A DNA stretch of 64,000 bases, from the NCBI GenBank assembly GCA_015488325.1, contig WFOA01000010.1:15945-79944 (forward strand), in the 5' to 3' direction. The DNA comes from Acidimicrobiia bacterium (GTDB taxonomy: Bacteria > Actinomycetota > Acidimicrobiia > Spongiisociales > ZC4RG35). The notes under the pieces are model-generated. The model made no database searches. It had not been told where the DNA came from and worked only from the letters and a program-made list of their open reading frames with translations. The translations under genes and the position numbers were made by a program. This document shows, piece by piece, positions 38,316 to 58,398 of the stretch (its first letter is position 1; each line of letters starts with the position of its first letter).

Positions 38316-38349
38316 GGCCATCCCTTCTCTTTTCAGCACCCAGTCTAAT

Positions 38350-38365
38350 TTGAGTAATAGCTCAA
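38350..38365. promoter_or_regulatory. Candidate TetR operator: inverted repeat TTGAG-N6-CTCAA in an AT-rich divergent intergenic region
   Basis: TTGAGtaatagCTCAA lies in the 88-nt gap between the divergent fadE5-like (start 38315) and tetR (start 38404) genes. This is the most AT-rich stretch locally. Confidence 0.45.
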
Positions 38366-38403
38366 GAACATTCGACCTCCGGGAACCTGGTACGGTCGCC
38401 ACC

Positions 38404-42237: not shown

Positions 42238-42263
42238 ATTTCCACTATCACGACCGTGGAATT
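42238..42263 (+). promoter_or_regulatory. suf-box copy 1: ATTTCCAC-N10-GTGGAATT inverted repeat, 12 nt upstream of sufC1
   Basis: Read directly from the sequence. One of three similarly built AT-rich 26-bp elements upstream of suf units (see findings). Confidence 0.6.
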
Positions 42264-42275
42264 TAGGCTGGGGCC

Positions 42276-43037
42276 GTGCGCACCGAGACCCCCCTCCTCC
42301 AGATCGAGAACCTCCACGCCGGGGTCGATGACGTCGAGATCCTCAAGGGCGTCGATCTCACGGTCGAACGCGGCCGCATCCACGTGCTGATGGGTCCCAA
42401 CGGCTCCGGCAAGTCCACCCTCGCCAACGTCCTCATGGGTCACCCCTCCTACGAGGTGACCGAAGGTCGCATCCTCTTCGACGGCGACGACGTCACCGAG
42501 ATGGCCCCGGACGAACGGGCACGGCGCGGCATGTTCCTCGCCTTCCAATACCCCGAAGCCATCCCCGGGGTCTCGGTGATCCAGTTCCTGCGCCAAGCCC
42601 TCTCCAACCGCCACGGCATCGACTACACGGTGCTGGAGCTGCGGCTCAAGGTGATGGACGCGATGAGAGAGCTGGGGATGGACTCCAGCTTCGCCGACCG
42701 CTACCTCAACGAGGGATTCAGCGGCGGTGAGCGGAAACGCAACGAGGTCCTGCAGATGGCGATCCTCGAGCCGACCCTCGCCATCTTGGACGAGACCGAC
42801 TCCGGTCTCGACATCGACGCCCTCAAGACCGTCGCCGAGGGGATCGACAAGCTCCGCCACCCGGACCGTGGTTTCCTCATCATCACCCACTACCAGCGGC
42901 TGTTGGACTACGTCACCCCCGACGACGTCCACGTCTTCATGGACGGCCGGGTCGTCGAGACCGGCGGCCCCGAGCTGGCGAAGCGACTCGAAGAGGAAGG
43001 GTACGAGGCCTTCCGCCGAACCGAGGTCCCCTCATGA
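42276..43037 (+). CDS. sufC: Fe-S cluster assembly ATPase SufC (copy 1)
   Basis: LQIENLHAGV...[44 protein letters not shown]...NEGFSGGERKRNEVLQM...[14 protein letters not shown] is canonical SufC. Confidence 0.95.
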   Translation: MRTETPLLQIENLHAGVDDVEILKGVDLTVERGRIHVLMGPNGSGKSTLANVLMGHPSYEVTEGRILFDGDDVTEMAPDERARRGMFLAFQYPEAIPGVSVIQFLRQALSNRHGIDYTVLELRLKVMDAMRELGMDSSFADRYLNEGFSGGERKRNEVLQMAILEPTLAILDETDSGLDIDALKTVAEGIDKLRHPDRGFLIITHYQRLLDYVTPDDVHVFMDGRVVETGGPELAKRLEEEGYEAFRRTEVPS

Positions 43038-44263
43038 GCGGTCTCGAGCACCTCCGGGCAGATTTCCCGGTGCTCCAACGGGAGATCGGGGGCAAGCCGG
43101 TGCATTTCCTCGACTCCGCCGCCAGCTCCCAGAAGCCGACGAGCGTCCTGGAAGCGATGGACGACTTCTACCGGTGCTGTTACGCCAACGTCCACCGGGG
43201 GGCGTACGCCCTGTCGGTGGAGTCGACCGAACGGTACGAGGCGGCCCGGAGCAGGGTCGCCTCGTTCATCAACGCCTCCGATCCGACCCAGGTGGCCTTC
43301 GCCCGAGGTGCCACCAGTGCGCTGAACCTCATCGCCCACGGCTGGGGTGGCGAACACCTCCGCCCCGGTGATCGGGTGCTGCTCACCGAGATGGAACACC
43401 ACGCCAACCTGGTGCCTTGGCAGATGGTCGCCGCCCGTACGGGAGCCCGCCTCGATTTCGTCCCCCTCACCGACGACTACCGGCTCGACCTGGAGGCGTT
43501 GGAGCAGAAGCTGGACGACGACGTGGCCGTCGTCGGCGTGACCGGGATGTCGAACGTCCTCGGCACCATCCCCCCGATCCCCCGGATCGCCGAGGCGGCC
43601 CGGACCGTCGGTGCTCTCCTGGTCGTGGACGGAGCCCAGCTCGTACCCCACCAACCCGTCGACGTCCAGACCCTCGGAGCCGACTTCCTCGTCTTCTCGG
43701 CCCACAAGATGCTGGGTCCGACCGGCATCGGGGCCCTGTGGGGTCGCCCCGAACGTCTCGAGGAGATGGAACCCTACGAAGGGGGCGGGGAGATGATCGC
43801 CGACGTCCAGCTCCACACCTCGACCTGGGCGGCGATCCCCCACCGTTTCGAGGCGGGGACACCGCCGATCGCCGAAGCCGTTGGTTTCGCCGCCGCGGTC
43901 GACTACCTCGACAAGGTGGGGATGGACCAGGTCGCCGCCCACGACGCCGACCTCACCGCCTACGCCCTCCAGCTCCTCGCCGAGATCCCCCACGTCACCG
44001 TGTACGGACCCGCCGACGTCGACGCCCGGGGAGGGGTGATCTCCTTCACGATGGCGGACGTCCACCCCCACGACCTGGCCACGATCCTCGACCAGCAGGG
44101 CGTGTCGGTGCGGGCGGGACATCACTGTGCCAAGCCCCTGATGCGCCGTCTCTGCGTGCCCGCCACCGCCCGGGCCTCCTTCTACGTGTACAACACCCGG
44201 ACCGACGTGGACGCCCTGGTCGAGGCCCTGGGGGTCGCATCTCGGATCTTCGGGGTCGGGTGA
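43034..44263 (+). CDS. sufS: Cysteine desulfurase SufS (group II)
   Basis: FLDSAASSQKP...ANVHRG.Y.LS...FSAHKMLGPTGIG...RAGHHCAKPL. Confidence 0.95.
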   Translation: MSGLEHLRADFPVLQREIGGKPVHFLDSAASSQKPTSVLEAMDDFYRCCYANVHRGAYALSVESTERYEAARSRVASFINASDPTQVAFARGATSALNLIAHGWGGEHLRPGDRVLLTEMEHHANLVPWQMVAARTGARLDFVPLTDDYRLDLEALEQKLDDDVAVVGVTGMSNVLGTIPPIPRIAEAARTVGALLVVDGAQLVPHQPVDVQTLGADFLVFSAHKMLGPTGIGALWGRPERLEEMEPYEGGGEMIADVQLHTSTWAAIPHRFEAGTPPIAEAVGFAAAVDYLDKVGMDQVAAHDADLTAYALQLLAEIPHVTVYGPADVDARGGVISFTMADVHPHDLATILDQQGVSVRAGHHCAKPLMRRLCVPATARASFYVYNTRTDVDALVEALGVASRIFGVG

Positions 44264-44274
44264 GGGAGGCGGAG

Positions 44275-44730
44275 ATGTCACTCGAAGAGCTGTATCGAGA
44301 GGTCATCCTCGACCACTACCGCAACCCGCGTCATCGCAAACCCCTCGACCGGGCCGACGCCCACGCCGAAGGCGTCAACCCGCTGTGCGGCGACGAGGTG
44401 ACGGTCGAACTCGCCGTCACCGACGGGAGGATCAGCGACGTCGCCGCCATCGGCCAGGGATGTTCGATCAGCCAGTCCTCGGCTTCGATGATGACCGACG
44501 CGATCCTCGGCAAGACCGTCGAAGAGGTGCGGGACCTCATCCAACGGTTCAAGGCCATGATGGACATCGACCACGAAGCCGACCTGGGTCTCGACCCGGA
44601 TCGTCCGGGGGCGGTGTTGGGGGACCTGGAAGCCCTCCAGGGCGTGCGCCGCTACCCGGTCCGGATCAAGTGCGCCAACCTCCCCTGGACCACCCTCGCC
44701 CAGGCTCTCGACCAGCTCTCCGCCTCTTAG
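44275..44730 (+). CDS. sufU: SufU/IscU-like Fe-S scaffold / sulfur acceptor
   Basis: LYREVILDHYRNPRH...NPLCGDEV...GQGCSISQSSASMMT...VRIKCANLPW is a SufU signature with three Cys ligands. Confidence 0.9.
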   Translation: MSLEELYREVILDHYRNPRHRKPLDRADAHAEGVNPLCGDEVTVELAVTDGRISDVAAIGQGCSISQSSASMMTDAILGKTVEEVRDLIQRFKAMMDIDHEADLGLDPDRPGAVLGDLEALQGVRRYPVRIKCANLPWTTLAQALDQLSAS

Positions 44731-44816
44731 GCTCTTCTTGACCTCCTGCTGATGCGCCCCTGAGTCGCATCCCGGCACGATGTCCACAGAACCGAGGGAT
44801 CAGTAGGAGGTCTCAC

Positions 44817-45692
44817 ATGGAACGAAAGATCTGGACCACGGCGGCGGCGCTCACCGTCGTTCTCGCCGTGACCGGCGTCGCCTGGGCAGGGCTGCCCCGC
44901 GCCGCCGAGACGAGCACCACCGTGACCGTGGAGAACGAGCTGGTGGCCCCGGCAGCCGACGCCGGCACCGTCACCCTCCGGAAAGTCGCCGCCGGCCTCG
45001 AGGTCGTGTCGGTGAGCCCGGCCGACGGCTGGGAGTACACCGTGAAACGTGCCGCCGGCCGGGAGGTCGAAGTCGACTTCCGAGCGATGGACGGGACGGT
45101 CGAGTTCGAGGCCGAGATCGACAACGGCCAGGTTCGCATCAAGGTGAAGGTCCGCGTGGACGCCGGTGCCTCCTCCACGACGACCGTCGATTCCACGTCC
45201 TCGACGGTGGACAGCACCTCCACCTCGGTGGCCGCCGGCCCCTCCACCACCGAGGCGGTGACGTCGACCACCATCGACGACAGCCCGTCCACCACGGTCG
45301 ACGATACGTCGCCGACCACCATCGACGACGACCGCACCACCTCGACCACGGTGTACGACGACGACGATGACGACGACCACACCACCTCGACCACGGTGTA
45401 CGACGACGATGACGACGACCGCACCACCTCGACCACGGTGGCGCAGGGCGATCCGGCCGACTTCGGCACCAAGGTCTACGACGTCGACGGCATCGGCACC
45501 GTCACCGTGGAACGGGACGCCGACGGCCTGACCCTCATCGCCGTCGTCTCCAACCCCGACTGGACGATCAACGTCGAGAAGGCCGGTCCGAAAGAGATCG
45601 AGATCGAGTTCAGGAACGGAGAGCTCGAGGTCAAGTTCGAAGCCGAGCTCGAGTACGGGGAGCTCCGGATCAAGATCGAGCGGGGTTCCTGA
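44817..45692 (+). CDS. Secreted protein with two copies of an uncharacterised ~65-aa beta-rich domain separated by a Ser/Thr/Asp-rich linker
   Basis: AGGAGG RBS. Signal peptide MERKIWTTAAALTVVLAVTGVAWA. Domain copies GTVTLRKVAAGLEVVSVSPADGWEYTVKRAAGREVEVDFRA..GTVEFEAEI and GTVTVERDADGLTLIAVVSNPDWTINVEKAGPKEIEIEFRNGELEVKFEAEL. Confidence 0.8.
   Translation: MERKIWTTAAALTVVLAVTGVAWAGLPRAAETSTTVTVENELVAPAADAGTVTLRKVAAGLEVVSVSPADGWEYTVKRAAGREVEVDFRAMDGTVEFEAEIDNGQVRIKVKVRVDAGASSTTTVDSTSSTVDSTSTSVAAGPSTTEAVTSTTIDDSPSTTVDDTSPTTIDDDRTTSTTVYDDDDDDDHTTSTTVYDDDDDDRTTSTTVAQGDPADFGTKVYDVDGIGTVTVERDADGLTLIAVVSNPDWTINVEKAGPKEIEIEFRNGELEVKFEAELEYGELRIKIERGS
45336..45440 (+). repeat. Imperfect tandem coding repeat (45/42-nt units) encoding TTSTTVYDDDDDD
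   Basis: accacctcgaccacggtgtacgacgacgac... occurs at 45336, 45381 and 45423 (the last copy partial). Confidence 0.7.
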
Positions 45693-45696
45693 CCGG

Positions 45697-46974
45697 TCAA
45701 TCCTTCCCGAACACCACCCGGAGAACCGCCCCGCCCTCGGGGCGGTTCTCCGCGTCGAGGTGGCCGCCCGTCCGCGCGGCGGTACGGGCCACGATGTCGA
45801 GTCCGAGACCCGTCGACCCGGCCCCGCTCTCCCCCCGGCGCAGGGGATCGACCCCGTCGGGGAACCCGGGTCCCTCATCGGCGACTTCCAGGACGGCACC
45901 ACCGGCGCCTCTATCGACCTTCACCGTGAACCCGGTCCCCGGAGGGGTGTGGGCGAAGACGTTGCCGACGAGGGCGTCGACGGCGGCTGCGACGTCGCCC
46001 GGAGGGAGCGGCACCGGCGTGGGATCGTCGGTGATCTTCACCTCCAGGGCGCGGTCCTGGTCTTCGGCGGCGACCGCCCAGAAGGCGATCCGGTCTCGGA
46101 CCACCGTCCCCAGATCGCAGGAGGCGGGCCGGTCGTCGGGCCTGGACCGGGCCTCTTCGATGAGCAGGTCGACTTGGCGCTGGAGGCGATCGAGCTGGGC
46201 GAGGAGGGACTCCCGCTCGGGGGATGCTTCGAGCCGCTCGACGCGCAAGCGGAGGGCGGTGAGGGGGGTGCGAAGTCGATGGGAGAGGTCGGCGACCGAT
46301 TCCCGCTCGGCGGCGAGGAGGTCGTCCAACCGCCGTGCGAGCCAGTTGAACGACCGGGCGACCTCCTCGATCTCGACCGGACCTTCCAGGGGAACCCGAA
46401 CCTGCAGATCGCCGGCTCCGAGACGGCGGGCGGCCGTCGCCAGGCGAGTGACGGGACGAACGAGGGACGTTCCCAGTCGGTCGGCCACCAGGACGGCAGC
46501 GACGATCATCCCCAACCCGAGCAGCGCCAAGAACACCCAGGCGGTGGCCACACCCGACCGCAACTGGTCGTCGGTGACGAAGGCCGTGACCACGATCGGG
46601 CCTTCCCGGGTCACCACCGGGAGCGCCACCTGCCAGCCCCCGTCGACCTCGTCGGCCACCGCACGTTGCTCATCGGCGGCGAGGCGGGTCACCGCGCTGG
46701 GCAGGGCGGACCCGATCAACCCTCCGTCGGGGAGGATGACGCTCACTCCGGGAGGTAGGGGCCCGAGGAGGTCGGCGAGGACGTCGACGTCGAGGCGGTC
46801 CACCTGGGCGAGGGCGAGGGCGACGAGGCTCCCCACCTCCTGAATGTCCCGTTCAGCGGCGACCCGGGCTCGGGTCTCCGCCTGGTGGCGGACCAACAGG
46901 GCCAGGGGCACGGTGAAGGCGATGACGACCAGGGACGTCACGGCGGCGGAGACGAGGACGAATCGGCGTCTCAC
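45697..46974 (-). CDS. Sensor histidine kinase (two TM segments, HAMP, HisKA, HATPase_c)
   Basis: GTG 46974 (GTGA overlap with the RR stop). H-box ADLSHRLRTPLTAL. G-boxes DEGPGF and GSTGLGL. Confidence 0.9.
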   Translation of the reverse strand: MRRRFVLVSAAVTSLVVIAFTVPLALLVRHQAETRARVAAERDIQEVGSLVALALAQVDRLDVDVLADLLGPLPPGVSVILPDGGLIGSALPSAVTRLAADEQRAVADEVDGGWQVALPVVTREGPIVVTAFVTDDQLRSGVATAWVFLALLGLGMIVAAVLVADRLGTSLVRPVTRLATAARRLGAGDLQVRVPLEGPVEIEEVARSFNWLARRLDDLLAAERESVADLSHRLRTPLTALRLRVERLEASPERESLLAQLDRLQRQVDLLIEEARSRPDDRPASCDLGTVVRDRIAFWAVAAEDQDRALEVKITDDPTPVPLPPGDVAAAVDALVGNVFAHTPPGTGFTVKVDRGAGGAVLEVADEGPGFPDGVDPLRRGESGAGSTGLGLDIVARTAARTGGHLDAENRPEGGAVLRVVFGKD

Positions 46975-47654
46975 GATTCGGGTTCGACCAGCTTCACCCC
47001 CACACCGTGAACGGTCCGCAGGTAGCGGGGCTGCTGCGCAGACTCGCCCAGTTTCTTGCGAAGCCACGACAGGTGCACGTCGACGGACCGCTCACTGCCG
47101 CCGTACGGCTCCCGCCAGACTTCGGCCATCAGCTCCCGCTTCGACACCACTTCGCCTGCACGTTCCGCCAGCACCCGCAACAGGTCGAACTCCTTGGGAC
47201 TGAGGTCCAGGGGTTCACCGTCGAGGGAGGCTTCCCGGGAGGACGGGTCCACCACCAGGCCGCCGATGACGATGGGTCCGTCCCGCCGACCCGACTCGGC
47301 CCGGCGAAGCACCGCCCGCACCCTCGCCTCGAGCTGGGCCACCGAGAAGGGCTTCACGAGGTAGTCGTCGGCGCCGGCGTCGAGGGTACGGACCACCGAC
47401 TCGTCCCCTTCCCGGGCGGTGATGACCACGACGGGCACCTGCGACACCGCTCGGATCATCCGGAGCAGCTCCGAGCCGTCGAGGTCGGGCAGGCCCAGGT
47501 CGAGGATCACCAGATCGGGCGACGATCCGACGACCTGGCGGAGACCCTCCATGGCGGTGGCCGCCGATTCGACGTCGTGACCCTGGCGGGCCAGCGTCTC
47601 GGCGACCAGGTGCCTGATCTCGAAGTCGTCCTCGACGACGATCACACGGGACAT
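46971..47654 (-). CDS. OmpR/PhoB-family response regulator
   Basis: MSRVIVVEDD...DLVILDLGLPDLDG (receiver domain). C-terminal winged helix ...VDVHLSWLRKKL...YLRTVHGVGVKL. Confidence 0.95.
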   Translation of the reverse strand: MSRVIVVEDDFEIRHLVAETLARQGHDVESAATAMEGLRQVVGSSPDLVILDLGLPDLDGSELLRMIRAVSQVPVVVITAREGDESVVRTLDAGADDYLVKPFSVAQLEARVRAVLRRAESGRRDGPIVIGGLVVDPSSREASLDGEPLDLSPKEFDLLRVLAERAGEVVSKRELMAEVWREPYGGSERSVDVHLSWLRKKLGESAQQPRYLRTVHGVGVKLVEPES

Positions 47655-47693
47655 CGGCCCCGAGCATATCGGCCGTGCCACCCCGGAGATCGG

Positions 47694-47723
47694 ACCTTGA
47701 CGAAACCTTGACTACCCCTTGAC
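47694..47723. promoter_or_regulatory. Three direct repeats (ACCTTGAC, ACCTTGAC, CCCTTGAC) with exact 11-bp phasing; candidate OmpR-family RR binding array
   Basis: Repeats start at 47694, 47705 and 47716. They sit in the 103-nt divergent region between the RR gene (start 47654) and the secreted-protein gene (start 47758). Confidence 0.6.
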
Positions 47724-47757
47724 TTCCGAGTGCGCGGATCTCGGGGAGAATGACGGT

Positions 47758-48405
47758 ATGCGCCGGCTCGTACTCGTCGTCGCCTGGATGGGCGCCACCG
47801 TGATCGTCACCGCCACCGCCTGGGCGGTGGTCTCCGCGGTGGAGGACCGGGTCAGCGACCGGCCCCTCACCCCCCTCATCGCCACCACCTTGGCGGTCGA
47901 CGAGACCACGACCACCACCTTGCCTCCGGTGACGGACCCGTCGGCCGAGACCCCGCCGCCGGCGACCGGCGACGAACCGACCACGACCACGGTCGGAGCC
48001 GAGACCGACGACACGGTGGCCTCGACGGGAAACACCGGAGGGGGCACCGTCCCCACCACCGCCGCCCCGACCACCACCACGACCTTGGTGACCACCACGA
48101 CGACCGTCCCGACCACCACCACGACCGTCGCGACCACCACGACCACCTCGACGGAGCCCTCCGGCGAGTGGCAGACGAAGACGATCGTGACGCCGGGAGG
48201 CAGCCTCACCATCAAGCACCGCCCCGACGAAGTCGTCTTGACGTCGACGACTCCGGCCGCCGGCTTCGTGGTCGAGATCAAAAACGCCGGTCCACCCGAA
48301 GTGGATGTCGAGTTCGAGACGAACGACGACACCGTCAAGATCGACGTGCGGGTCCGCTACGAGAACGGCGTCCTCATCGAAGACATCGAAGAGGAGCGAA
48401 GCTGA
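47758..48405 (+). CDS. Secreted/membrane-anchored Thr-rich protein with one copy of the same ~65-aa domain as 44817..45692
   Basis: MRRLVLVVAWMGATVIVTATAWAVV is a signal or anchor. Poly-Thr linker (TTTTTLVTTTTTVPTTTTTVATTTTTS). C-terminal GGSLTIKHRPDEVVLTSTTPAAGFVVEIKNAGPPEVDVEFETNDDTVKIDVRV. Confidence 0.75.
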   Translation: MRRLVLVVAWMGATVIVTATAWAVVSAVEDRVSDRPLTPLIATTLAVDETTTTTLPPVTDPSAETPPPATGDEPTTTTVGAETDDTVASTGNTGGGTVPTTAAPTTTTTLVTTTTTVPTTTTTVATTTTTSTEPSGEWQTKTIVTPGGSLTIKHRPDEVVLTSTTPAAGFVVEIKNAGPPEVDVEFETNDDTVKIDVRVRYENGVLIEDIEEERS

Positions 48406-48408
48406 ACC

Positions 48409-49800
48409 TCAGAGGATGCCACCCTCGGTCATCTTCTTGATGTCGAGGGCGGCGTCGACCTCTTCGGCGCTCATCAGCCCCTTCTCGAGGACCACCTCCC
48501 GCACGGTCCGCCCGCTGGCGAATGCCTCTTTCGCCACGGCGGCTCCGGCGTCGTAGCCGATGTGGGGGTTGAGGGCCGTTACCACGATGACGTTTTTCTC
48601 GACGAGTTCACGGGCCCGTTCTTCGTTCGCCTCGATCCCGGTGACACACTTCTCGGCCAGCACCCGCGACGCGTTGCCGAGGATCGTGATCGCCTGCAAC
48701 AGGTTGTGGGCGATCAACGGCATCATCACGTTGAGCTCGAAGTTGCCGTTGGCTCCCCCCCAGGTGATGGCGGCGTCGTTGCCCATCACCTGCGCCGCCA
48801 CCATCATCACCGCCTCGGGGATGACCGGGTTCACCTTGGCGGGCATGATCGACGAGCCGGGTTGGAGTGCCGGAAGCCGGATCTCGCCGATCCCGGTGAC
48901 CGGACCGCTCGACAGCCAGCGGAGGTCGTTGGCGATCTTGAACAGTGACGTGGCGACGGTCTTGAGGGTGCCGGCCGCCTGCACCGTGGCGTCCTTCGCC
49001 GCCTGCGCCTCGAAGTGGTTCGTGGCTTCCCGGAACGGGATCCCGGTCCGCTCGGAGATGACGTCGATCACCTTCGCGGCGAAGCCTTCCGGACAGTTGA
49101 TCCCGGTCCCTACGGCGGTTCCCCCGAGGGGGAGCTCCTCGAGTTCGGGGAGGACCTTCTCGACCCGTTCGATCCCCTTGCGGACCTGGGTGGCGTAGCC
49201 GGAGAACTCCTGGCCGAGGGTGACCGGCGTGGCGTCCATGAGGTGGGTCCGTCCCGACTTCACGACCCGTTCGAACTCCCGGGACTTCTCCTCCAAGGCG
49301 AGGGCCAGCGCCGACAGTCCCGGGATCAGCACTTCCCGCACCTCGGCGGCGGCGGCGACGTGGATCGCCGTGGGGATCACGTCGTTCGACGACTGACCGA
49401 AGTTGACGTGGTCGTTGGGATGTACGAGTTTGGACCCCAGGGCTCCACCCAGGACCTGCGAAGCGCGGTTGGCGATCACCTCGTTGGCGTTGGTGTTCGT
49501 CGACGTCCCCGATCCGGTCTGGAAGATGTCGACCGGGAAGTGCTCGTCGAAGTCGCCCCTCGCCACTTCGGCGGCGGCCTGCTCGATCGCCTTCGCCTTC
49601 TCGGCGTCGACGTACCCTTCGGGTCCTGCGACGGCGGCCACCGCCCCTTTGATGACGCCGAGGGCCCAGATGAACCGACGGGGGAAACGGATCCCCGAGA
49701 TCGGGAAGTTCTCGATCGCCCGTTGCGTCGAAGCTCCGTAGAGGGCGTCGGCCGGGACCCGGACCTCGCCCATCGAGTCTCTCTCGGTGCGGTACTCCAC
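48409..49800 (-). CDS. fumC: Class II fumarate hydratase
   Basis: [11 protein letters not shown] signature. [19 protein letters not shown]. 463 aa. GTG start with GAAGGAG RBS. Confidence 0.95.
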
Positions 49801-49873
49801 GATGGTGCTCCTTCGTCGACAGCTCCAGCGTACGCCCCGGCCGCCCCGGCCGCGACCGCTGAAAGTCCATCCG

Positions 49874-50674
49874 TCAGAAGTCGAAGGGAGTGTCGGTGAA
49901 GAAGTCCGACGGCCGGCGTTCCGACGGGGTGGGTTCGGGCTGGAGACCGAGACGCTCCCGCAGGCCTTCGTATCCTTCTGCCTCCAGCTCGTCGGCCAGC
50001 TCGGGTCCTCCCGAACACACGATCCTGCCGTCCATCATCACGTGGATCCGGTCGGCCCGCAGGTAGCGGAGGATGCGGGAGTAGTGGGTGATGAGCAGCA
50101 CCCCGAGGTCGGGGCCTCGCATCTCCTCCACGGCGGCCGCCACCTCCCGGACGGCGTCGATGTCGAGTCCGGAGTCGATCTCGTCGAGCAGCGCCGCCTT
50201 CGGACGGAGTACGGCCATCTGGAGGATCTCGGAACGCTTCTTCTCCCCGCCGGAGAGGTCGTCGTTGACCGACCGGTCCAAGAATTCGGTGGCGCCGAGG
50301 CGTTCGGCGAGCTCCCGGGCCCGGGTCAGTGTCGCCTCCGGGTCGGCTCCCCACTCTTCCGCCGCCTCTCGGAGCAGCTCGGACAGTTTCACCCCGGGGA
50401 TCTCCACGGGATACTGGAAGGCCTGCAGGAGCCCCAACCGGGCCCGCTCGTCCACCTCGAGGCCCAACACCTCCGTCCCGTCGAGGAGGGCGGATCCCGA
50501 GACCTCGTAGCCGTCTTTTCCGGTGAGCACATGACAGAGGGTCGACTTGCCCGAACCGTTCGGGCCCATCACGGCGTGGACCTCGCCGAAACCGATGTCG
50601 AGGTCCACGCCACGCAGGATCTCGACGGAACCAACCGAGGCGTGGAGGTCGCGGATCTGGAGGGCGAGGCTCAT
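49874..50674 (-). CDS. sufC: Fe-S cluster assembly ATPase SufC (copy 2, with ~20-aa C-terminal extension)
   Basis: From ATG 50674 (ATGA overlap with the Rieske stop): [10 protein letters not shown]...ILRGVDL....[17 protein letters not shown]...[16 protein letters not shown]...[13 protein letters not shown]. Confidence 0.9.
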
Positions 50675-50985
50675 GACGGCTCCACGGACAGGTAGACGTC
50701 GCCGTCTTCCACCTTCACCCGGTAGGTGGGCACCGGCCGGGTCGCCGGAAGGGTGAGGGGTTTGCCCGTCTTGAGGTCGAAGACGGCGCCATGGCGGGGA
50801 CATTCGATCTCGTGGTCCACGACCTCTCCTTCGGCGAGGGACGCCTCGGCGTGACTGCATCGATCACCGAGGGCGTAGACGTCGTCTCCGACCCGGACGA
50901 GGGCGATCCGGTGCCCGGGAAGGTCGACCCGCACCGGGGCGCCCGGGACCAGATCGTCCATCGACGTCACCTTCACCCAGCTCAT
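50671..50985 (-). CDS. Rieske [2Fe-2S] ferredoxin-like protein embedded in the suf operon
   Basis: CSHAEASL...CPRHGAVF (CxH...CxxH). 104 aa. ATGA overlaps on both sides. Confidence 0.9.
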   Translation of the reverse strand: MSWVKVTSMDDLVPGAPVRVDLPGHRIALVRVGDDVYALGDRCSHAEASLAEGEVVDHEIECPRHGAVFDLKTGKPLTLPATRPVPTYRVKVEDGDVYLSVEPS

Positions 50986-52247
50986 CCCAACCTCCCTGCG
51001 GCCTGAGCGGCACCGAACCGTTCGTCCACTTCCCGCCGGAGCGGATCGGCCATGGCGTCCGACGGGAGGCGTTCGATGACCTCTTCGAAGAACCCGTGCA
51101 CCAGGAGGCGTTCGGCCCGGTCACGGGAGAGACCCCGGCTCATCAGGTAGTACAGATGTTCGGCGTCGAGGGGCCCGACGCTGGAGCCGTGCCCGCAGAC
51201 CACGTCGTCACAGAGGATCTCGAGGTTGGGGACCGAATGGGCCTTCGCCCCGTCGGAGAGGACCAGGTTGCGGTTGGTCTCGAACGCCGATGTGCGGGCG
51301 GCGGTGGGAGCGATCCGCAACAGACCGGTGAACACCGACTGGGCGTGATCTTCCACCGCGCCTTTGAGGAGGACGTCGGAGCTGGTGGAGCGGCCCACGT
51401 GGTCGATCACCATCCGGTAGTCGAGGACCTGGGTGCCTTCACCGAAGTACAACCCGACGACCTCGGCGGAGCTACCGTCGCCTTCGAGGCGCACCCCGAG
51501 GTCGAGCCGGGCCGTCGACCCCCCGAGGCCCGCCTCCCCGACCCGCAGGGTGGCGTCCCGGGCGAGTCGAGCCCGCTCGTGGGCGACGAGGACGGTGGCG
51601 TCGCCGAGGAGCTGGACGGTGGTGAACCGCAGCCGGGCCCCCTGGGCGACGTCGAGTCCGAGCAGCGGAGCGACGACGGCGTCGACGCCGTCGGGGCTGC
51701 GGTAGACGACCACCACGTTCGCCTCGGCGTTCTCACCGACCTCCACCGTCACTTCCGGGAACGAGATCGTGCCGCCGGCGGTGGCTTGGAGTTCGACCAC
51801 CACCGGACGGACCTCGACCGCACCGGCCGGGACGCCGACGAACACCCCGTCGCCGCCGAAGGCGAACCCGGCGGCGGCGAACTTGTCCACCGAGGGGTCG
51901 ACGAGGGATGGGACCGCTCCCCGCTCCCACCGTTCCGCCCCCCGGCCGATTCGCACGGTGTCCCCACCGTCCACCGACACCGTGTACCCGTCCACGACCA
52001 CGACCCGGCCGGCAGCGTCGCCGATCGCCGACACGAAGGGGCCGGGCTTCAGCGGTTGTCCGGGTTCTTCGGGGAGGGCGAGGGTGTCGAAGTCGACGTC
52101 GAGGTCGACGTATCTCCAGGCCTCGTCGGTGTCGGACGGAGGGGGGATCTCGCGGTAGAGGTCGAAGGCTTCGAGTCGCCGCCGAGCGAGGGGCTCGGGG
52201 GCGTCGCGATTCAGGACCTCGACGGTCGTGGCGTTCAGGGCGAGCAC
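50982..52247 (-). CDS. sufD: Fe-S cluster assembly protein SufD
   Basis: 421 aa with beta-helix-type repeats. The C-terminal ...NLEILCDDVVCGHGSSVGPLDAEHLYYLMSRGLSRDRAERLLVHGF is a SufD/SufB family signature. Confidence 0.9.
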   Translation of the reverse strand: MLALNATTVEVLNRDAPEPLARRRLEAFDLYREIPPPSDTDEAWRYVDLDVDFDTLALPEEPGQPLKPGPFVSAIGDAAGRVVVVDGYTVSVDGGDTVRIGRGAERWERGAVPSLVDPSVDKFAAAGFAFGGDGVFVGVPAGAVEVRPVVVELQATAGGTISFPEVTVEVGENAEANVVVVYRSPDGVDAVVAPLLGLDVAQGARLRFTTVQLLGDATVLVAHERARLARDATLRVGEAGLGGSTARLDLGVRLEGDGSSAEVVGLYFGEGTQVLDYRMVIDHVGRSTSSDVLLKGAVEDHAQSVFTGLLRIAPTAARTSAFETNRNLVLSDGAKAHSVPNLEILCDDVVCGHGSSVGPLDAEHLYYLMSRGLSRDRAERLLVHGFFEEVIERLPSDAMADPLRREVDERFGAAQAAGRLG

Positions 52248-52280
52248 GGTCTCTCCGCAGGCAGGGACGGCCCGAATCGT

Positions 52281-52306
52281 ATTCTCACTACCGCCGTATT
52301 GGAAAT
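52281..52306 (-). promoter_or_regulatory. suf-box copy 2: (gene orientation) ATTTCCAA-N10-GTGAGAAT, 33 nt upstream of sufD
   Basis: Read directly from the sequence. It overlaps the last codons and stop of the UDG gene. Confidence 0.55.
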
Positions 52307-52977
52307 TCGTCGAGCAGCGACCGCGCCCGCTCGAACACGGCGTCGAGCATGGCCTCGGTGAGACGCCCTGTGAAGGTGTTCTGCTGGGACGGATGGTAGG
52401 AGGCGAGGAGGGTGGCGGCCCCCACCCGGACCTCGACCCCGTGGCCGAAGCGGGGACGGGGACGGGGGACCTCCCGCCCCAGGTCGCTCAACACCCGCAG
52501 CACCCCCCGGAAGGCGACACCGCCCAGGGCGACGACCACGGAAGGGTCGAGGAGTTCGAGTTCTTCGGCGAGGAACGGGCGACATGCCGCCTCCTCGGCC
52601 CCGACCAGGCGGTTCTGGGGCGGCGCGCAGCGGGCCACGGCGGTGATCCAGCAGTCGGTGAGCACGAGACCGTCGTCACGGCCGACCGACTCCGGCCGGT
52701 CGGCGAACCCGGCCCGGTGCAGCGCCCGGTACAGCCAGTCGCCGGACCGGTCTCCGGTGAACATGCGCCCCGTACGGTTGGCGCCGTGGGCGGCGGGGGC
52801 GAGGCCCACCACCACCATCCGGGCATCCGGGTCTCCGAATCCGGGTACGGGGCGCCCCCAATAGGTCTCGTCCCGGTAAGCCGCCCGTTTGGTCCGAGCG
52901 ACCTCCTCCCGCCACTGCACCAGACGGGGACATCGCCGGCACTCGACGATCTCGGCTTGGAGGTCGGCGAGCCTCAC
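52288..52977 (-). CDS. Uracil-DNA glycosylase, family 4/5 (UdgB-like)
   Basis: ECRRCPRL...VVVGLAPAAHGANRTGRMFTGD.SG..L...HPSQQN. GTG 52977 forms a GTGA overlap with the upstream stop. Confidence 0.85.
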   Translation of the reverse strand: MRLADLQAEIVECRRCPRLVQWREEVARTKRAAYRDETYWGRPVPGFGDPDARMVVVGLAPAAHGANRTGRMFTGDRSGDWLYRALHRAGFADRPESVGRDDGLVLTDCWITAVARCAPPQNRLVGAEEAACRPFLAEELELLDPSVVVALGGVAFRGVLRVLSDLGREVPRPRPRFGHGVEVRVGAATLLASYHPSQQNTFTGRLTEAMLDAVFERARSLLDEFPIRR

Positions 52978-54515
52978 TCCCGACCCGCCGGATCCAGGGC
53001 CTCCACCGTCACGTTCGACAGTGCGTTCCACAGCATCCATCCGAACCCGAACCCTTCGGCGGCGTCGATCTGTGCTCGGACCTGTTGGGGGTCGTAGCCG
53101 AAATCCTGGAGCCAGGGACGGATGACCGTCCCCGAGTCGAGCCGCTCCACGCCGTCGGCGAGGGCCCGGGAGACCACCTCGGCCGGGTAGTCGTTGGGGT
53201 TGTCGAACCCGAACCACCCGCGGCCGTAGTGGCTCGGGTACAGCATCGGGGAGATCACGTCGACGACTTCGGCGACGGCCGGCCAGAGCTGGCCGATCCC
53301 GCCGTCGTCCAGGGCGGTAGTGGTGAACCCGAACACGTCGGCGGCCACCGCGCATCCGAGGGGATGGAGCTGGTCCCGGGCGCGGCCGAGGAACCCGACG
53401 ATGGTCCGTACACGGGTCTGGGGGTCGGATCCCTCGTCGAACACGGTCGACGGCCCGAAGCCGTCCGGATAACGCACGTAGTCGAACTGGATCTCGTCGA
53501 CGCCCCGGGTACAGGCCTCCCGGGCGATCTGGAGTGCGTAGTCCTGGGCGGCGGGATCGGTGGGGTCGAGGAACCACTGCCCGCCCTTGCGGTACGGGGC
53601 CCCCCGGGCCGTGTCCCACACCGCCATCTCCGGGGCACGGCGGGCGGCGATGGGATCCTGGAAGGTGACGATCCTGGCCACCACGTAGAGGCCGGCGGCG
53701 TCGGCCTGGCGAACCACCTCGTCCAGCGAGTACGGCTCCGCGACGATGGTCCCGAGCCGCAGCGCCGTGGCGACGTTCGAGTCGTACCAGATGAGGCCGT
53801 CGTCGTCTTTCAGGTCGATCATCAGAGCGTTGAGCTCGGTCGTCTCCGCCATGCGGAGGTATTCCTGGCGGCGGGATTCGTCGGCGAGGACCTCACCGCC
53901 GATGTGCACGGCCTTCACCACCCGGGGGACCACTTCGATCTGGCGGAACCCGGGGCCTCCGTCCCAGTCGAAGGCGGTGTTCTCCCATGCCGGGCGCCAG
54001 ACGTCCACCGGCCCCGCCTCCGCTCGCCGCAGCAGGAACCGTCCTGTCTCGTCGGTGACCGTCGAAGCACCACCAGCCGTGATCCGTACCGCCCCCACCG
54101 GCCGGCCTTCGGGGTCACGTACCTCGCCCCGGAGCATCCGGGCCTGGACCCGGAAACGCACCGGCCCGTCGGGACGTCGAGGGATCGACATGGTCCGGGG
54201 CAGGTACCCGGGGGCGTCGAAGGTGAGCTGGGTCCCCGGCGGTCGCCACGCGAGCAGCACGGTTCCCTCCGGGTCGGTCACCCCCAGGGAGTCGCCGTCG
54301 GCCAGGACCTCGACACCGACCACCGGGACTCCCTCCTCGTCTACGACCAGCACGGCGACGTCGGCGCTGCCGGCCGCCACCCGCCATCCGGCGAGTGCCG
54401 CCCACAGGAGGGTGACGAAGAGGAGCAGCCGGAGCTGTCTGGGTCGGGACACCGACGTGGAGGATACCGACCGCCCGGGGGTGCGCACCCCGGCGACCAT
54501 CCCAGGATTTTCCAT
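52974..54515 (-). CDS. Secreted putative glycoside hydrolase (DUF4015/COG1306-like TIM-barrel) with N-terminal carboxypeptidase-regulatory-like repeats
   Basis: Signal/anchor LRLLLFVTLLWAALAGW. ...ALMIDLKDDDGLIWYDS...YVVARIVTFQD...WFLDPTDP...GVDEIQFDYVRYP. The start is ambiguous (ATG 54515 or 54500). Confidence 0.7.
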   Translation of the reverse strand: MENPGMVAGVRTPGRSVSSTSVSRPRQLRLLLFVTLLWAALAGWRVAAGSADVAVLVVDEEGVPVVGVEVLADGDSLGVTDPEGTVLLAWRPPGTQLTFDAPGYLPRTMSIPRRPDGPVRFRVQARMLRGEVRDPEGRPVGAVRITAGGASTVTDETGRFLLRRAEAGPVDVWRPAWENTAFDWDGGPGFRQIEVVPRVVKAVHIGGEVLADESRRQEYLRMAETTELNALMIDLKDDDGLIWYDSNVATALRLGTIVAEPYSLDEVVRQADAAGLYVVARIVTFQDPIAARRAPEMAVWDTARGAPYRKGGQWFLDPTDPAAQDYALQIAREACTRGVDEIQFDYVRYPDGFGPSTVFDEGSDPQTRVRTIVGFLGRARDQLHPLGCAVAADVFGFTTTALDDGGIGQLWPAVAEVVDVISPMLYPSHYGRGWFGFDNPNDYPAEVVSRALADGVERLDSGTVIRPWLQDFGYDPQQVRAQIDAAEGFGFGWMLWNALSNVTVEALDPAGRE

Positions 54516-54571
54516 TGTGGTTGTCCGTGGGTGGTGATAGCGTTGCCTTCCAAGGGGACAGAGGTGATGAG

Positions 54572-55504
54572 GTGGCAGAGCACCGCGGGTCCGGTGCATC
54601 GGTGGCGGATGCCGTAGGCCTCTACCTCGACGAGGTGGCGGATCACTATCTGCTCACCGCCGAGGACGAGGTTCGGCTGGCCAGGGCGATCGAACAGGGA
54701 CGACGCGCCCAGAGCCGTCTCGACGGTGACACCGAACTCGATCCCGCCGAACGGGCTCGTCTGGAACAGCTCGTAGAAGAAGGCCACGACGCCAAACTCA
54801 CCTTCATCCGGTGCAACCTGCGGCTCGTCATCTCGATCGCCAAGCGGTACACGGGCCGCGGCCTCGACCTCCTCGACCTCATCCAGGAGGGCAACCTCGG
54901 GTTGATCCGGGCGGTGGAGAAGTTCGACTGGCGGAAAGGCTTCAAGTTCTCCACGTACGCCACCTGGTGGATCCGTCAGGCCATCACCCGGGGACTGGGG
55001 AACAACGCCCGGACGATCCGCCTCCCGGTGCACATGGTCGACGTCGTCCGCACCGTCCACGACACCCACCAGCAGCTCGCCGAAGAGTTCCACCGGGCAC
55101 CGACGGTGGACGAGATCGCCGCCGTCTCCGGGCTCGACCCCGACCGTGTCGAAGCAGCCCTGTCGGCCCCCACCGACACCGTCTCCCTCGACCGGCCCGT
55201 CGGTGACGACGGCGACGCCGAACTCCACGAATTCATCTGCGACGACGACACCCCCGACCCCTTCACCACCGCCGTCGAACGGATGCGGGACGCCGAGATC
55301 CAACGGGCGCTCTCGATGCTCAGCCGGGAAGAGCGGGTCGTCCTCACCCTCCGGTTCGGGCTCGACGGCCGCGACTCGTGGACGCTGTCGGCGGTGGGCA
55401 AGCTGTTGGGCATGACCCGGGAACGGGTCCGCCAGATCGAGAGTCGGGCCCTCGCCAAGCTCCGCCATCCCTCGGCCGCCGTCCAACTGGAGTCGCTCCT
55501 GTAA
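54572..55504 (+). CDS. Sigma-70 family sigma factor, group 1/2-like (regions 1.2-4.2 present)
   Basis: DAVGLYLDEV..HYLLTAEDEV; NLRLVISIAKRY.GRGL.LLDLIQEGNLGLIRAVEKFD..KGFKFSTYATWWIRQAITR; LGMTRERVRQIESRALAKLRH. The start is uncertain (GTG 54572 or 54602; the track uses TTG 54515). Confidence 0.85.
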   Translation: MAEHRGSGASVADAVGLYLDEVADHYLLTAEDEVRLARAIEQGRRAQSRLDGDTELDPAERARLEQLVEEGHDAKLTFIRCNLRLVISIAKRYTGRGLDLLDLIQEGNLGLIRAVEKFDWRKGFKFSTYATWWIRQAITRGLGNNARTIRLPVHMVDVVRTVHDTHQQLAEEFHRAPTVDEIAAVSGLDPDRVEAALSAPTDTVSLDRPVGDDGDAELHEFICDDDTPDPFTTAVERMRDAEIQRALSMLSREERVVLTLRFGLDGRDSWTLSAVGKLLGMTRERVRQIESRALAKLRHPSAAVQLESLL

Positions 55505-55563
55505 CGGCCCTTCGGGGTCGAGACCCTGGCCATCGGCGAACCCTGCTGTAGCCTGACCCTCCG

Positions 55564-55836
55564 ATGGAAGCCATCAGCAGCGAAATCGTCGACGCGTTCA
55601 TCCGGATCGCCGTCGCCGGCGGCATCGGAGGCCTCTTCGGAGGGTTCATCGGAGGTCGGGGGAAGAACCTGATCGGCTCGATCCTGTTGGGAATCATCGG
55701 CGGGATCTCGGCTTCGGCGATCCTCCGGATCGCCGGGGTGCCCGCCATCATGAACGCCGGCGAAGGATTCGGACTGGTCTACGGCTTCGTCGGTGGTTTC
55801 ATCCTGGCGTTCGTCGTGGGAGCCTCCAATCGCTGA
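55564..55836 (+). CDS. GlsB/YeaQ/YmgE-family (transglycosylase-associated) small membrane protein
   Basis: 90 aa with Gly-rich TM helices: AVAGGIGGLFGGFIGG...LGIIGGISASAIL. Confidence 0.7.
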   Translation: MEAISSEIVDAFIRIAVAGGIGGLFGGFIGGRGKNLIGSILLGIIGGISASAILRIAGVPAIMNAGEGFGLVYGFVGGFILAFVVGASNR

Positions 55837-56623
55837 CCTGCCCCGCTCCGGAGTCACCAAGCTCGACATCGCCCGGGACTGGCTGCCCCGGTACACGGGT
55901 ATGCCGGTCGAGGATTTCGGCGACTACATCCTGCTGACGAACTTCGGCTACTACGTGGAGCGGTTCGCCGAGCGTTTCGACTGCCCGATCACCGGCACCG
56001 ACCGCCCCATGCAGGCGGCCACCAACGACGACGGCCTCACCATCGTCAACTTCGGGATCGGCACCGCCAACGCCGCCACGATCATGGACCTGCTCACCGC
56101 CCGCCGGCCCGCCGGGGTCCTGTTCCTCGGCAAATGCGGCGGGCTCAAGCATTCGACCGAGATCGGGCATTTCATCCTCCCGATCGCCGCCATCCGGGGA
56201 GAGGGCACCTCCAACGACTACTTCCCGCCCGAAGTCCCCGCCCTCCCCTCCTTCAAGCTCCACAAGTTCGTCTCCGACCGCATCGTCGCCCGGGGCCTCG
56301 AATACCGCACCGGCGTGGTCTACACGACCAACCGCCGGGTGTGGGAACACGATCAGGAGTTCCTGGCCCGGCTCCGCCGGCTCACCGCGATCGGCATCGA
56401 CATGGAGACCGCCACCCTGTTCATCGTCGGGCACGCCAACCGGATCAGCCGCGGGGCGCTGCTGTTGGTCTCCGACGTGCCCTTTCATCCCCAGGGGATC
56501 AAGACCGAGGAGAGTGACGCGCGGGTCACCGCCCAATGGTCGGACACCCACCTCGACATCGGTATCGAGGCGATGAGCCAGATCGCCCGGGAAGGCGAGC
56601 CGATCAAACACTTCACCTTCTGA
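55793..56623 (+). CDS. AMP nucleosidase-like nucleoside phosphorylase (PNP_UDP_1 family, catalytic domain only)
   Basis: WLPRYTGMPVEDFGDYILLTNFGYYVERF parallels the Amn RLRHYTGT..E.F....LFTNY..YV..F region. FLGKCGGL and IDMETATLF also fit. The conserved region precedes the first ATG, so GTG 55793 is used (44-nt overlap with the upstream gene). Confidence 0.75.
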   Translation: MVSSWRSSWEPPIADLPRSGVTKLDIARDWLPRYTGMPVEDFGDYILLTNFGYYVERFAERFDCPITGTDRPMQAATNDDGLTIVNFGIGTANAATIMDLLTARRPAGVLFLGKCGGLKHSTEIGHFILPIAAIRGEGTSNDYFPPEVPALPSFKLHKFVSDRIVARGLEYRTGVVYTTNRRVWEHDQEFLARLRRLTAIGIDMETATLFIVGHANRISRGALLLVSDVPFHPQGIKTEESDARVTAQWSDTHLDIGIEAMSQIAREGEPIKHFTF

Positions 56624-56645
56624 GCGGCCCGGTAGAGTCCCCGGG

Positions 56646-56903
56646 GTGTTCGGGTTCCTGTTCTCGCTGGTCGTCGCCGCCTTCGCCGGGTGGCTGGGAG
56701 CCCGTCTGGCGGGCCGTGACGAACCCCTCGGGTGCCTGTCGTCCATCGTGTTGGGGTTCATCGGATCCCTCTTCGGGTCGTGGCTGGCCCGCACCCTCGA
56801 CCTGCCCCTCCTCTGGACGGTCCGGGGCTTCCCGGTGATCTGGGCGGTGGTGGGCGCGGCCCTGTTCGTCGCCCTGCTCAACCTCGTCGGCGGGCGACGC
56901 TGA
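56646..56903 (+). CDS. GlsB/YeaQ/YmgE-family small membrane protein (second copy)
   Basis: 85 aa: FLFSLVVAAFAGWLGARLAG...IVLGFIGSLFGSWLAR. Confidence 0.7.
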   Translation: MFGFLFSLVVAAFAGWLGARLAGRDEPLGCLSSIVLGFIGSLFGSWLARTLDLPLLWTVRGFPVIWAVVGAALFVALLNLVGGRR

Positions 56904-56927
56904 ACCCGAAGGCGGTCGGTTCCGACC

Positions 56928-58340
56928 TCAGCCGACGGCGCCGGCCTCCGCCATGTTCAGCTCGATGAGCCGGTTCATCTCGACCGCGTACTCCATCGGG
57001 AGCTCCTTCACGATCGGTTCGATGAACCCGGCCACGATCATCGAGGTCGCCTGGTCTTCGGTGAGGCCGCGACTCATCAGGTAGAAGAGCTGCTCCTCCC
57101 CGACCTTCGAGACGGTCGCCTCGTGGCCGATCTCGGCGTCGTTCTCTTCGATCTCCATGTAGGGGTAGGTGTCCGACCGGCTCTTCTCGTCGAGGATCAG
57201 GGCGTCGCAGCGGACGAAGCTGCGCGAATCCTCGGCGTCCGGCTCGACCCGGACCAGACCCCGGTACCCGGCCCGACCTCCGTCCTTCGAGATCGACTTG
57301 GAGACGATCGTCGACGTGGTGTGGGGGGCGGCATGCACCATCTTCGCCCCGGTGTCCTGGTGTTGGCCTTTCCCGGCGAAGGCGATCGACAGCACTTCGC
57401 CGTGGGCCCCGGGCTCCATGAGCCACACGGCCGGGTATTTCATCGTCAGGCGGGAACCGAGGTTGCCGTCGACCCACTCCATGGTGGCGTCGGCGTAGGC
57501 CATCGCCCGTTTCGTCACGAGGTTGAACACGTTCGACGACCAGTTCTGGATGGTCGAGTAGCGGCAGCGTCCGCCCCGCTTGACGACGATCTCGACGACG
57601 GCGGCGTGGAGAGAGTCGGTCGAGTAGATCGGAGCCGAACACCCTTCGACGTAGTGCACGTAGGCGCCCTCGTCCACGATGATGAGGGTCCGTTCGAACT
57701 GACCCATGTTCTCCGAGTTGATCCGGAAGTAGGCCTGGAGGGGCTGTTCGACGTGGACCCCGGGGGGCACGTAGATGAAGGACCCTCCCGACCAGACCGC
57801 CGAGTTGAGGGCGGCGAACTTGTTGTCGTTGGGCGGGATCACCGTCCCGAAGTACTGGCGAACCAGCTCTTCGTACTCCCGCAGGGCGGTGTCCATGTCG
57901 GTGAACAGCACCCCTTGGGCTTCGAGCTCCTCCCGGTTGCGGTGGTACACCACCTCGGATTCGTATTGGGCGGTCACCCCGGCCAGATATTTCCGTTCCG
58001 CCTCCGGGATCCCGAGCTTCTCGTAGGTCTCTTTGATCTCCTCGGGCACCATGTCCCAGGACTTGGCCTGACCCTCGGTGGGTTTGATGTAGTAGTAGAT
58101 GTCGTCGAAGTCGATGGTGTCGAGGAGCCCACCGCCGCCCCAGGTGGGCATCGGCTTGCGAAGGAAACGCTGATAGGCGCGCAGACGGAAGTCGAGCATC
58201 CAGGCGGGCTCGCCCTTCATGTCCGACATCTGGCGGATGATGTCCTCGGACAGCCCCTTCTGGGGCTTGAAGACGTACTCCTCCTCGGAGTCCTTCCAGC
58301 CCAGCTTGTAGGCACCCAGGTCGATGTCAACGGTTGCCAT
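56928..58340 (-). CDS. sufB: Fe-S cluster assembly protein SufB
   Basis: 470 aa. ...[17 protein letters not shown]...[25 protein letters not shown]...STIQNW...[23 protein letters not shown] is canonical SufB. Confidence 0.95.
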
Positions 58341-58372
58341 GCGGCGTCTCCTCGAGGGTCTCGACGAAGCGA

Positions 58373-58398
58373 ATTTCTACTACGCAGATAGTGTATAG
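58373..58398 (-). promoter_or_regulatory. suf-box copy 3: (plus strand) ATTTCTAC-N10-GTGTATAG, 32 nt upstream of sufB
   Basis: Read directly from the sequence in the 71-nt gltB-sufB gap. Same 8-N10-8 architecture as copies 1 and 2, with a weaker second arm. Confidence 0.5.

Follow-up and report, generated by a model that had tools for sequence, protein, structure and literature searches.

The stretch of DNA analysed here (the window) comprises 64,000 nucleotides of contig WFOA01000010.1 from an uncultured member of the Acidimicrobiia, and carries the suf genes for iron-sulphur (Fe-S) cluster assembly in three units spread across 16 kb. Each unit is preceded by a copy of the same 26-bp palindromic element, hereafter referred to as the suf box. 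The first unit, sufC1-sufS-sufU (42276-44730, + strand), is made up of sufC1 (42276-43037, Pfam ABC_tran), sufS (43034-44263, Aminotran_5) and sufU (44275-44730, NifU_N). The second, sufD-Rieske-sufC2 (49874-52247, - strand), contains sufD (50982-52247, SUFBD_core), a Rieske ferredoxin gene (50671-50985, Rieske) and sufC2 (49874-50674, ABC_tran), and the third consists of sufB (56928-58340, - strand, SUFBD_core and SufBD_N). The window holds two sufC paralogues, of 253 and 266 amino acids, which belong to different boxed units.

Box 1 is located at 42238-42263 on the + strand (ATTTCCACTATCACGACCGTGGAATT), 12 nt 5’ of the GTG start codon of sufC1. Boxes 2 and 3 are on the - strand, at 52306-52281 (ATTTCCAATACGGCGGTAGTGAGAAT in gene orientation, 33 nt 5’ of sufD) and at 58398-58373 (CTATACACTATCTGCGTAGTAGAAAT in gene orientation, 32 nt 5’ of sufB), respectively. 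The intergenic gaps that hold the three boxes measure about 40-74 nt each. The TAG stop codon (52288-52290) of the upstream uracil-DNA glycosylase gene falls inside box 2 and, thus, this element overlaps the end of a coding sequence. Box 1 combines a perfect distal half-site with a degenerate half on the sufC1 side, where CCG replaces TAG. The three elements had been reported, with these coordinates, sequences and distances, in a reading of the bare sequence (the original prediction); all were recovered unchanged here, and the gene identities are backed by the Pfam matches given above.

We then assessed how specific the motif is within the window. When a position weight matrix (PWM) was built from two of the sites, the third ranked first among ~128,000 positions, each time, with ~20 bits for the held-out site against 10-14 bits for the runner-up. 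An independent PWM was derived from 24 sites from other genomes only, and 20 local shuffles of the window served as background. With this matrix, the three sites score 27-31 bits while the next best position in the 64 kb reaches 6.9 bits and the shuffles 13.8 bits at most. Boxes 2 and 3 score 31.4/27.2 and 30.7/30.2 bits on their two strands, respectively; box 1 scores 27.8 bits on the - strand and 19.0 bits on the + strand, i.e. its better orientation points away from sufC1. The ten-base skeleton TTN4CTAN6TAGN4AA, searched with at most one mismatch, matches the window twice (boxes 2 and 3) against 0.04 matches expected; box 1 fails this strict test because of the CCG in its sufC1-proximal half. 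As the original prediction had remarked, the boxes are among the AT-richest 26-mers of this 70% GC window, but other patches of equal AT content obtain no score. Together, the leave-one-out test, the independent PWM, the shuffles and the equally AT-rich controls rule out an origin by chance or composition; a similar frequency in random DNA of the genome, which the original prediction had named as an outcome that would undo it, is, within the window, not what the matrices return. One near-match of the type TCCAC-N10-GTGGA is present at 45189-45214 (CTGTCCACCGTCGAGGACGTGGAATC), inside the gene of a secreted Ser/Thr/Asp-repeat protein; it reaches 12-14 bits with the window-derived matrices and less than 6.9 bits with the independent one, and was judged to be a chance match.

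Is the box conserved in relatives? The SufB protein of the window is also found on contigs of an uncultured Acidimicrobiia bacterium, for example in GCA_027076505.1 and GCA_015492815.1. We scanned 80 sufB loci of GTDB species representatives (~21 kb each) with the PWM. In about 20 Acidimicrobiia genomes, the best match of the locus falls 10-110 nt 5’ of sufB, and a second match is found 5’ of sufD in every locus where this gene stands apart as a unit (L026, L027, L033 and L052). Several of these boxes are near-perfect palindromes, e.g. CCACTATC-GG-GATAGTGG in L010. Conservation upstream of orthologous suf genes, on which the original prediction had made its case depend, is therefore seen at both sufB and separate sufD genes. 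Boxed, Acidimicrobiia-like sufB loci were also encountered in two metagenome-assembled genomes (MAGs) recorded as Boseongicola sp. and Acidobacteriota (L014 and L015), which may be mis-binned contigs or mislabelled bins.

A gene-blind scan of JGI metagenome contigs was carried out with the pattern TTNNNACTATSNNSRTAGKRNAAAT, which fits only 7 of the 27 sites then known. At least 120 contigs match, and both flanks of each of the 120 matches listed were classified by gene. The box adjoins sufB on 70 of these contigs, sufC (mostly as sufC-sufS-sufU) on 19 and sufD on three. Three further matches lie between divergent genes for the A-type carrier ErpA (PF01521) and the Mrp/ApbC carrier (PF10609 and PF01883), two adjoin a gene for a periplasmic solute-binding protein (PF13343), and one each adjoins a gene for a Fer4_15-type ferredoxin and for an EfeO-like lipoprotein, both assigned by reading the sequence. 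The remaining matches are on low-GC contigs with no such neighbour (12, attributed to chance) or at contig ends where the flanks could not be assessed (9). Thus, among the 120 matches listed, all 99 assessable high-GC ones flank an Fe-S or iron gene, where the iron role of the solute-binding proteins, a generic family match, is our own reading. The proposal that a shared operator coordinates the dispersed suf units gains strong support from both directions, conservation in relatives and the gene-blind scan. With its recurrence at these genes in well over a hundred related genomes, the box marks a real regulon that has apparently not been described so far.

To define the anatomy of the box, 130 distinct boxes from 116 loci were aligned. 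Their 26-bp consensus is rTTkyyACTATsnnsrTAGkrnAAAT, with an information content of 33.6 bits. Near-invariant positions are T2 and T3, C8, T9 and A10, T17, A18 and G19, and A24 and A25; T2T3 and A24A25 are kept in 93-97% of the boxes. The conserved core is ACTA-N6-TAGT, flanked by outer A/T tracts set 3 nt off the core, and it is chiefly these tracts that the outer arms contribute. The layout originally described, two 8-nt arms around a 10-nt spacer initiated by TA, must be revised accordingly: it misplaces the core, since the TA dinucleotides assigned to the spacer belong to the most conserved inner elements, ACTA and TAGT. At the variable mirrored positions, complementarity between the arms is at or below chance, as for example at positions 4/23 (12% observed, 22% expected). 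The mirrored positions keep specific bases and the arms do not covary, which points to a site read by a protein and not to an RNA hairpin.

The position of the box relative to start codons and -10-like hexamers follows three registers, one for each class of gene. In the sufB class, a TANNNT hexamer lies in the left arm, as part of an extended -10 sequence TG-T-TACTAT, in 81 of 91 boxes, and the start codon is a median of 35 nt past the box; transcription of sufB is predicted to start ~7 nt past this TACTAT. In the sufC class, TANNNT begins at box position 26 or 27 (13 of 19) and the start codon is 11-13 nt past the box. In the sufD class, TANNNT is in the right arm at position 17 (7 of 11), with the start codon a median of ~31 nt past the box. 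The distances in the window fit these classes, namely 12 nt for sufC (11-13), 33 nt for sufD (~31) and 32 nt for sufB (~35). Directly 3’ of box 1, at 42264-42269 on the + strand, is the hexamer TAGGCT, and the GTG of sufC1 begins 7 nt past its last base. The original suggestion that sufC1 may be leaderless with TAGGCT as its -10 element fits the pattern of the sufC-type boxes, where the predicted transcription start site coincides with the start codon; we infer the same layout, with a predicted -10 at 42264-42269, for sufC1. A promoter scan with an E. coli-type model called no promoter. The box is found in both orientations relative to its genes, as illustrated by box 1 and by the divergent erpA/apbC pairs. 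Two-fold symmetry with specific conserved bases, independence of orientation and a variable register to the -10 hexamer and start codon are all general properties of operators. A symmetric box that occurs in three -10 registers and in either orientation is thus best read as an operator superimposed on promoters rather than a promoter element itself.

We consider it very likely that the three elements of the window are copies of one operator read by a single dimeric transcription factor, most probably a repressor. Each monomer would read one inner CTA/TAG element together with the A/T tract ~6 bp further out, a geometry that would be typical of a winged helix-turn-helix protein with a wing or an AT-hook in the minor groove. 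Since the box overlaps the predicted -10 element and start site of sufB and sufD, or directly precedes the -10 of a leaderless sufC, the bound protein would block RNA polymerase, and it is this overlap that suggests repression. The repressor would most likely release the DNA when the supply of Fe-S clusters drops, and all three separated suf units would thereby answer to one signal. In relatives, the targets of the box may further include erpA, the gene of the Mrp/ApbC carrier, that of a small ferredoxin and components of iron uptake.

Several observations weigh against this proposal. Box 1 has a single good half-site. The box is missing from L007 and L008, the nearest relatives as judged by SufB identity (87-88%) and, thus, the system can be lost. 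No transcription factor gene adjoins the box in ~100 boxed loci, so that autoregulation, the usual handle on a regulator, is not seen. Finally, the repression itself, the Fe-S or iron signal and the fold of the protein are what we infer from the boxes and their surroundings. At ~9940-10000, L007 and L008 have AT-rich DNA 5’ of sufB in which only a remnant half-site, e.g. CTTAGTGCAAT, can be recognised, suggesting that the operator was lost or replaced recently. Several further Acidimicrobiia families are also without it; the box is widespread across Acidimicrobiia, not universal. Box-less relatives include OZ253443.1 and OZ244034.1, and Actinospongicola halichondriae Hal317 carries a weak box of 16 bits.

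Which protein might read the box? As the original prediction had stated, no SufR, Rrf2 or ArsR gene is present in the window, as assessed by Pfam scans of the plausible open reading frames (ORFs) and by tblastn. The only regulators encoded in the window are a TetR-family protein (38314-38949), an OmpR-type response regulator with its kinase (45697-47681) and a sigma-70 factor (54515-55504), while the unannotated ORFs beside the suf units encode a lipoprotein and a secreted repeat protein. The box-binding protein is encoded outside the window. Between the TetR-family gene and a divergent acyl-CoA dehydrogenase gene lies the AT-richest 26-mer of the window (38346-38371, TAATTTGAGTAATAGCTCAAGAACAT), containing a different palindrome, TTGAG-N6-CTCAA, which is probably the operator of the adjoining TetR protein. 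The first part of the window (1-34000) is taken up by a large cluster for polysaccharide and cell-envelope biosynthesis, with many glycosyltransferases, dTDP-sugar enzymes, a flippase-like protein and a CWB2-repeat protein.

Outside the window, 592 ORFs neighbouring boxed genes were clustered without yielding a candidate regulator. Recurrent neighbour families are a flavin reductase, an MBL-fold protein, UGSC, a hexapeptide transferase, DUF2752 and a Cys-rich protein of ~150 residues. The latter, which has no Pfam match, is conserved, and many Acidimicrobiia carry its gene between sufB and sufD (L026, 12013-12471, and ~35 other loci, L033, L034, L044 and L094 among them); it combines four N-terminal cysteines (CX16CX11CX3C) with a very basic tail. 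It is missing from the window and its closest relatives yet present in box-less genomes, and its occurrence shows no correlation with that of the box. Weak box-like sites (11-18 bits), followed up as pointers to an autoregulated gene, gave no candidate either. SufR homologues adjoin sufB in the Nocardia, Mycobacterium, Planctomycetota and Dormiibacterota loci; tblastn detected no SufR (COG2345) homologue near any of the Acidimicrobiia suf loci or boxed loci examined. In the same two sets of loci, no Rrf2 gene was detected by tblastn with E. coli IscR as query, an insensitive search.

Acidimicrobiia do encode COG2345 proteins. Two of them, BAN02115 and BAN04159 of Ilumatobacter coccineus, are part of the dataset of a 2025 preprint on the SufR-DNA complex of Mycobacterium tuberculosis. 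BAN02115-type SufR genes are divergent from a paralogous operon, ferredoxin-sufB-sufC-sufD-sufT (L207-L215, L221 and L222), the SufB of which is 40-42% identical to that of the window, compared to 69% for Nocardia SufB. Their promoters bear a palindrome of their own, TTTyRCA-N9-10-TGCGmAA, and no full box. On the 778-kb contig of L221 (ERZ25039514:contig_37356), a BAN02115-type SufR and a 33-bit box 5’ of sufS-sufU are found 5 kb apart, indicating that the two elements coexist and are distinct. BAN02115-type SufR was rejected as the reader of the box on the grounds of these promoters and its tie to the paralogous SUF operon. BAN04159-type regulators sit between apbC and erpA, at the very junction that carries the box in L096 and L107; regulator and erpA form an operon in L218-L220 and L223, divergent from apbC in L218 and L219. 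Upstream is the palindrome ATTTTACCGG-N5-CCGTGTAAT (9968-9992 in L218-L220, ~100-127 in L223), the arms of which resemble those of the suf box. It is kept in a relative with only 57% identity and was found nowhere else in the sequences examined. Across 30 diverse representatives of the family, both the recognition helix and the AT-hook are invariant. The erpA/apbC synteny makes this regulator an attractive candidate, but it was likewise rejected because of its own distinct operator and its invariant recognition helix. Neither COG2345 paralogue is convincingly the box-binding protein, and from the content of the regulon, an Rrf2/IscR-like regulator would be an equally good guess.

The alternatives to a repressor operator differ widely in how well they account for these observations. 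It is extremely improbable that the box functions at the RNA level, as a hairpin of the 5’ leader (an attenuator or stability element), or is a chance likeness of AT-rich intergenic DNA: a hairpin can be folded from the sequence and the sites rank with the AT-richest of the window, but the arms show no compensatory variation, the sufC-class box is upstream of the likely transcription start site, an Rfam search of the box returned no relevant family match, and chance is excluded by the leave-one-out test, the independent PWM, the gene-blind scan and the skeleton count. Only slightly less remote is the idea that the box is the promoter of a dedicated alternative sigma factor, its arms serving as -35- and -10-like elements. 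In its favour, the AT content of each short intergenic region peaks in the box, the left arm in the sufB class holds a perfect extended -10 (TGnTACTAT), and the sigma-70-family gene at 54515-55504 lies between the sufB and sufD units. Against it, the box has two-fold symmetry, occurs in either orientation to its gene (box 1 and the divergent erpA/apbC pairs) and has -10-like hexamers and start codons in three registers; its arms, ~13 nt apart, are too close for a -35/-10 pair, and the E. coli-type scan called no sigma-70-type promoter.

The more serious alternatives concern the identity of the protein. The box could be the operator of a SufR-like (COG2345) [4Fe-4S] repressor with an altered core, with the AT-hook reading the outer tracts and the helix-turn-helix reading ACTA/TAGT, an assignment that we regard as doubtful. 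In its favour, ACTA-N6-TAGT has the same 4-N6-4 geometry as CAAC-N6-GTTG, and the sufR promoters of Dormiibacterota, TATTT-CAAC-N6-GTTG-AAAAA followed by TAGGAT and a leaderless start, reproduce the layout of box 1. COG2345 proteins are encoded by Acidimicrobiia, one of them on the same contig as a 33-bit box (L221), and half-boxes are seen in two sufR promoters (L207 and L215). The M. tuberculosis preprint, moreover, describes by cryo-EM a weakly specific palindrome with A/T tracts needed by the AT-hook. Against it, both Acidimicrobiia COG2345 families have other conserved palindromes on their own promoters, the invariant recognition helix of the BAN04159 family speaks against a switch of specificity within that family, no COG2345 gene is present in the window or near the boxed loci, and the A/T tracts of the box are 3 nt off the core, not directly against it. 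Binding by an Rrf2-family Fe-S regulator resembling IscR or RirA is, in our judgement, similarly unlikely. IscR and RirA regulons are broad and SufR regulons narrow, and the boxed set of suf, erpA, Mrp/ApbC, ferredoxin and iron-uptake genes is closer to the former. In its 26-bp length, its AT-rich ends and its ACT/AGT elements, the box is similar to the type-1 consensus of IscR, ATASYYGACTRWWWYAGTCRRSTAT, and in both sites ~11 bp separate the outer A/T contact from the dyad. The two do not align, however, as the distance from ACT to AGT is 11 bp in the box and 8 bp in the type-1 site (26 and 25 bp overall), and the searches described above returned no Rrf2 gene, neither in the window by Pfam nor in Acidimicrobiia or boxed loci with the insensitive IscR query. 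A tentative further proposal is that the dimeric regulator of the suf box is neither a canonical SufR nor an IscR, and represents a third COG2345 specificity class or a member of another family. Acidimicrobiia would then have up to three parallel systems of A/T-flanked palindromes, with the control of two SUF systems, of Fe-S carriers and of iron uptake shared out among the suf box, the BAN02115-type site and the BAN04159-type site.

Soil, marine and freshwater communities harbour Acidimicrobiia in abundance, most of them uncultured, and these bacteria appear to rely on SUF for Fe-S assembly. In the literature library searched, no paper names SufR and Acidimicrobiia together, and the broader SufR/Rrf2 searches of it listed none on the class. 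The existence of an operator of this kind is what a specialist would expect; as a conserved and useful element, the result is solid. The shared box would explain how suf genes scattered over 16 kb can be co-regulated. The motif of ~34 bits can be searched for directly and delineates an Fe-S/iron regulon of Acidimicrobiia from sequence alone. It may be used in the annotation of MAGs, in the interpretation of metatranscriptomes, where iron or oxidative stress should raise the expression of boxed genes jointly, and as bait in identifying the regulator that reads ACTA-N6-TAGT.

How does the suf box compare with known operators of Fe-S biogenesis? SufR binds CAAC-N6-GTTG in Synechocystis and Streptomyces avermitilis, and ACACT-N5-TGTGA in M. 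tuberculosis, according to the literature. The 2025 cryo-EM preprint describes sites of the SufR type as a weakly specific palindrome plus A/T tracts that the AT-hook requires. Both cores can be read at our comparison loci, as GAATTCCGyC-ACACT-N5-TGTGA-AAA in Nocardia and Mycobacterium and as TATTT-CAAC-N6-GTTG-AAAAA in Dormiibacterota. The original prediction had noted that the box does not match CAAC-N6-GTTG; with its ACTA-N6-TAGT core, it departs from the mycobacterial site as well. Like SufR operators, the box is located on suf promoters, has a 4-N6-4 core with A/T tracts on both sides and presumably mediates Fe-S-responsive repression, and it shares with the Dormiibacterota sufR promoters the succession of operator, TAnnnT and leaderless start. 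It differs in its core bases, in the 3-nt offset of its A/T tracts, in having no adjacent or autoregulated sufR in the boxed loci examined, and in a broader regulon that includes erpA, apbC, ferredoxin and iron-uptake genes. Like the box (26 bp), the IscR type-1 site (25 bp) is palindromic, has ACT/AGT elements and conserved ends rich in AT, and overlaps promoters; IscR, too, acts on genes of Fe-S assembly and on those of carriers, erpA for example. The box, however, has an inner spacing 3 bp wider and arms 1 bp shorter, a spacing incompatible with the type-1 consensus, which cannot be aligned to it; its hosts are SUF-only Actinomycetota, and no Rrf2 gene is tied to it. The BAN02115- and BAN04159-type palindromes are the closest in setting, being A/T-flanked and found in Acidimicrobiia at Fe-S biogenesis genes. 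The BAN04159-type site even has similar outer arms (ATTnnAC...GTnnAAT) and occupies the same erpA/apbC junction as the boxes of L096 and L107. The inner cores differ, however, and each of these palindromes adjoins an autoregulated COG2345 gene, which the box never does. We therefore rate the suf box as functionally similar to the operators of SufR and IscR while failing the sequence definition of both, i.e. as a putative lineage-specific operator that would define an Fe-S/iron regulon.

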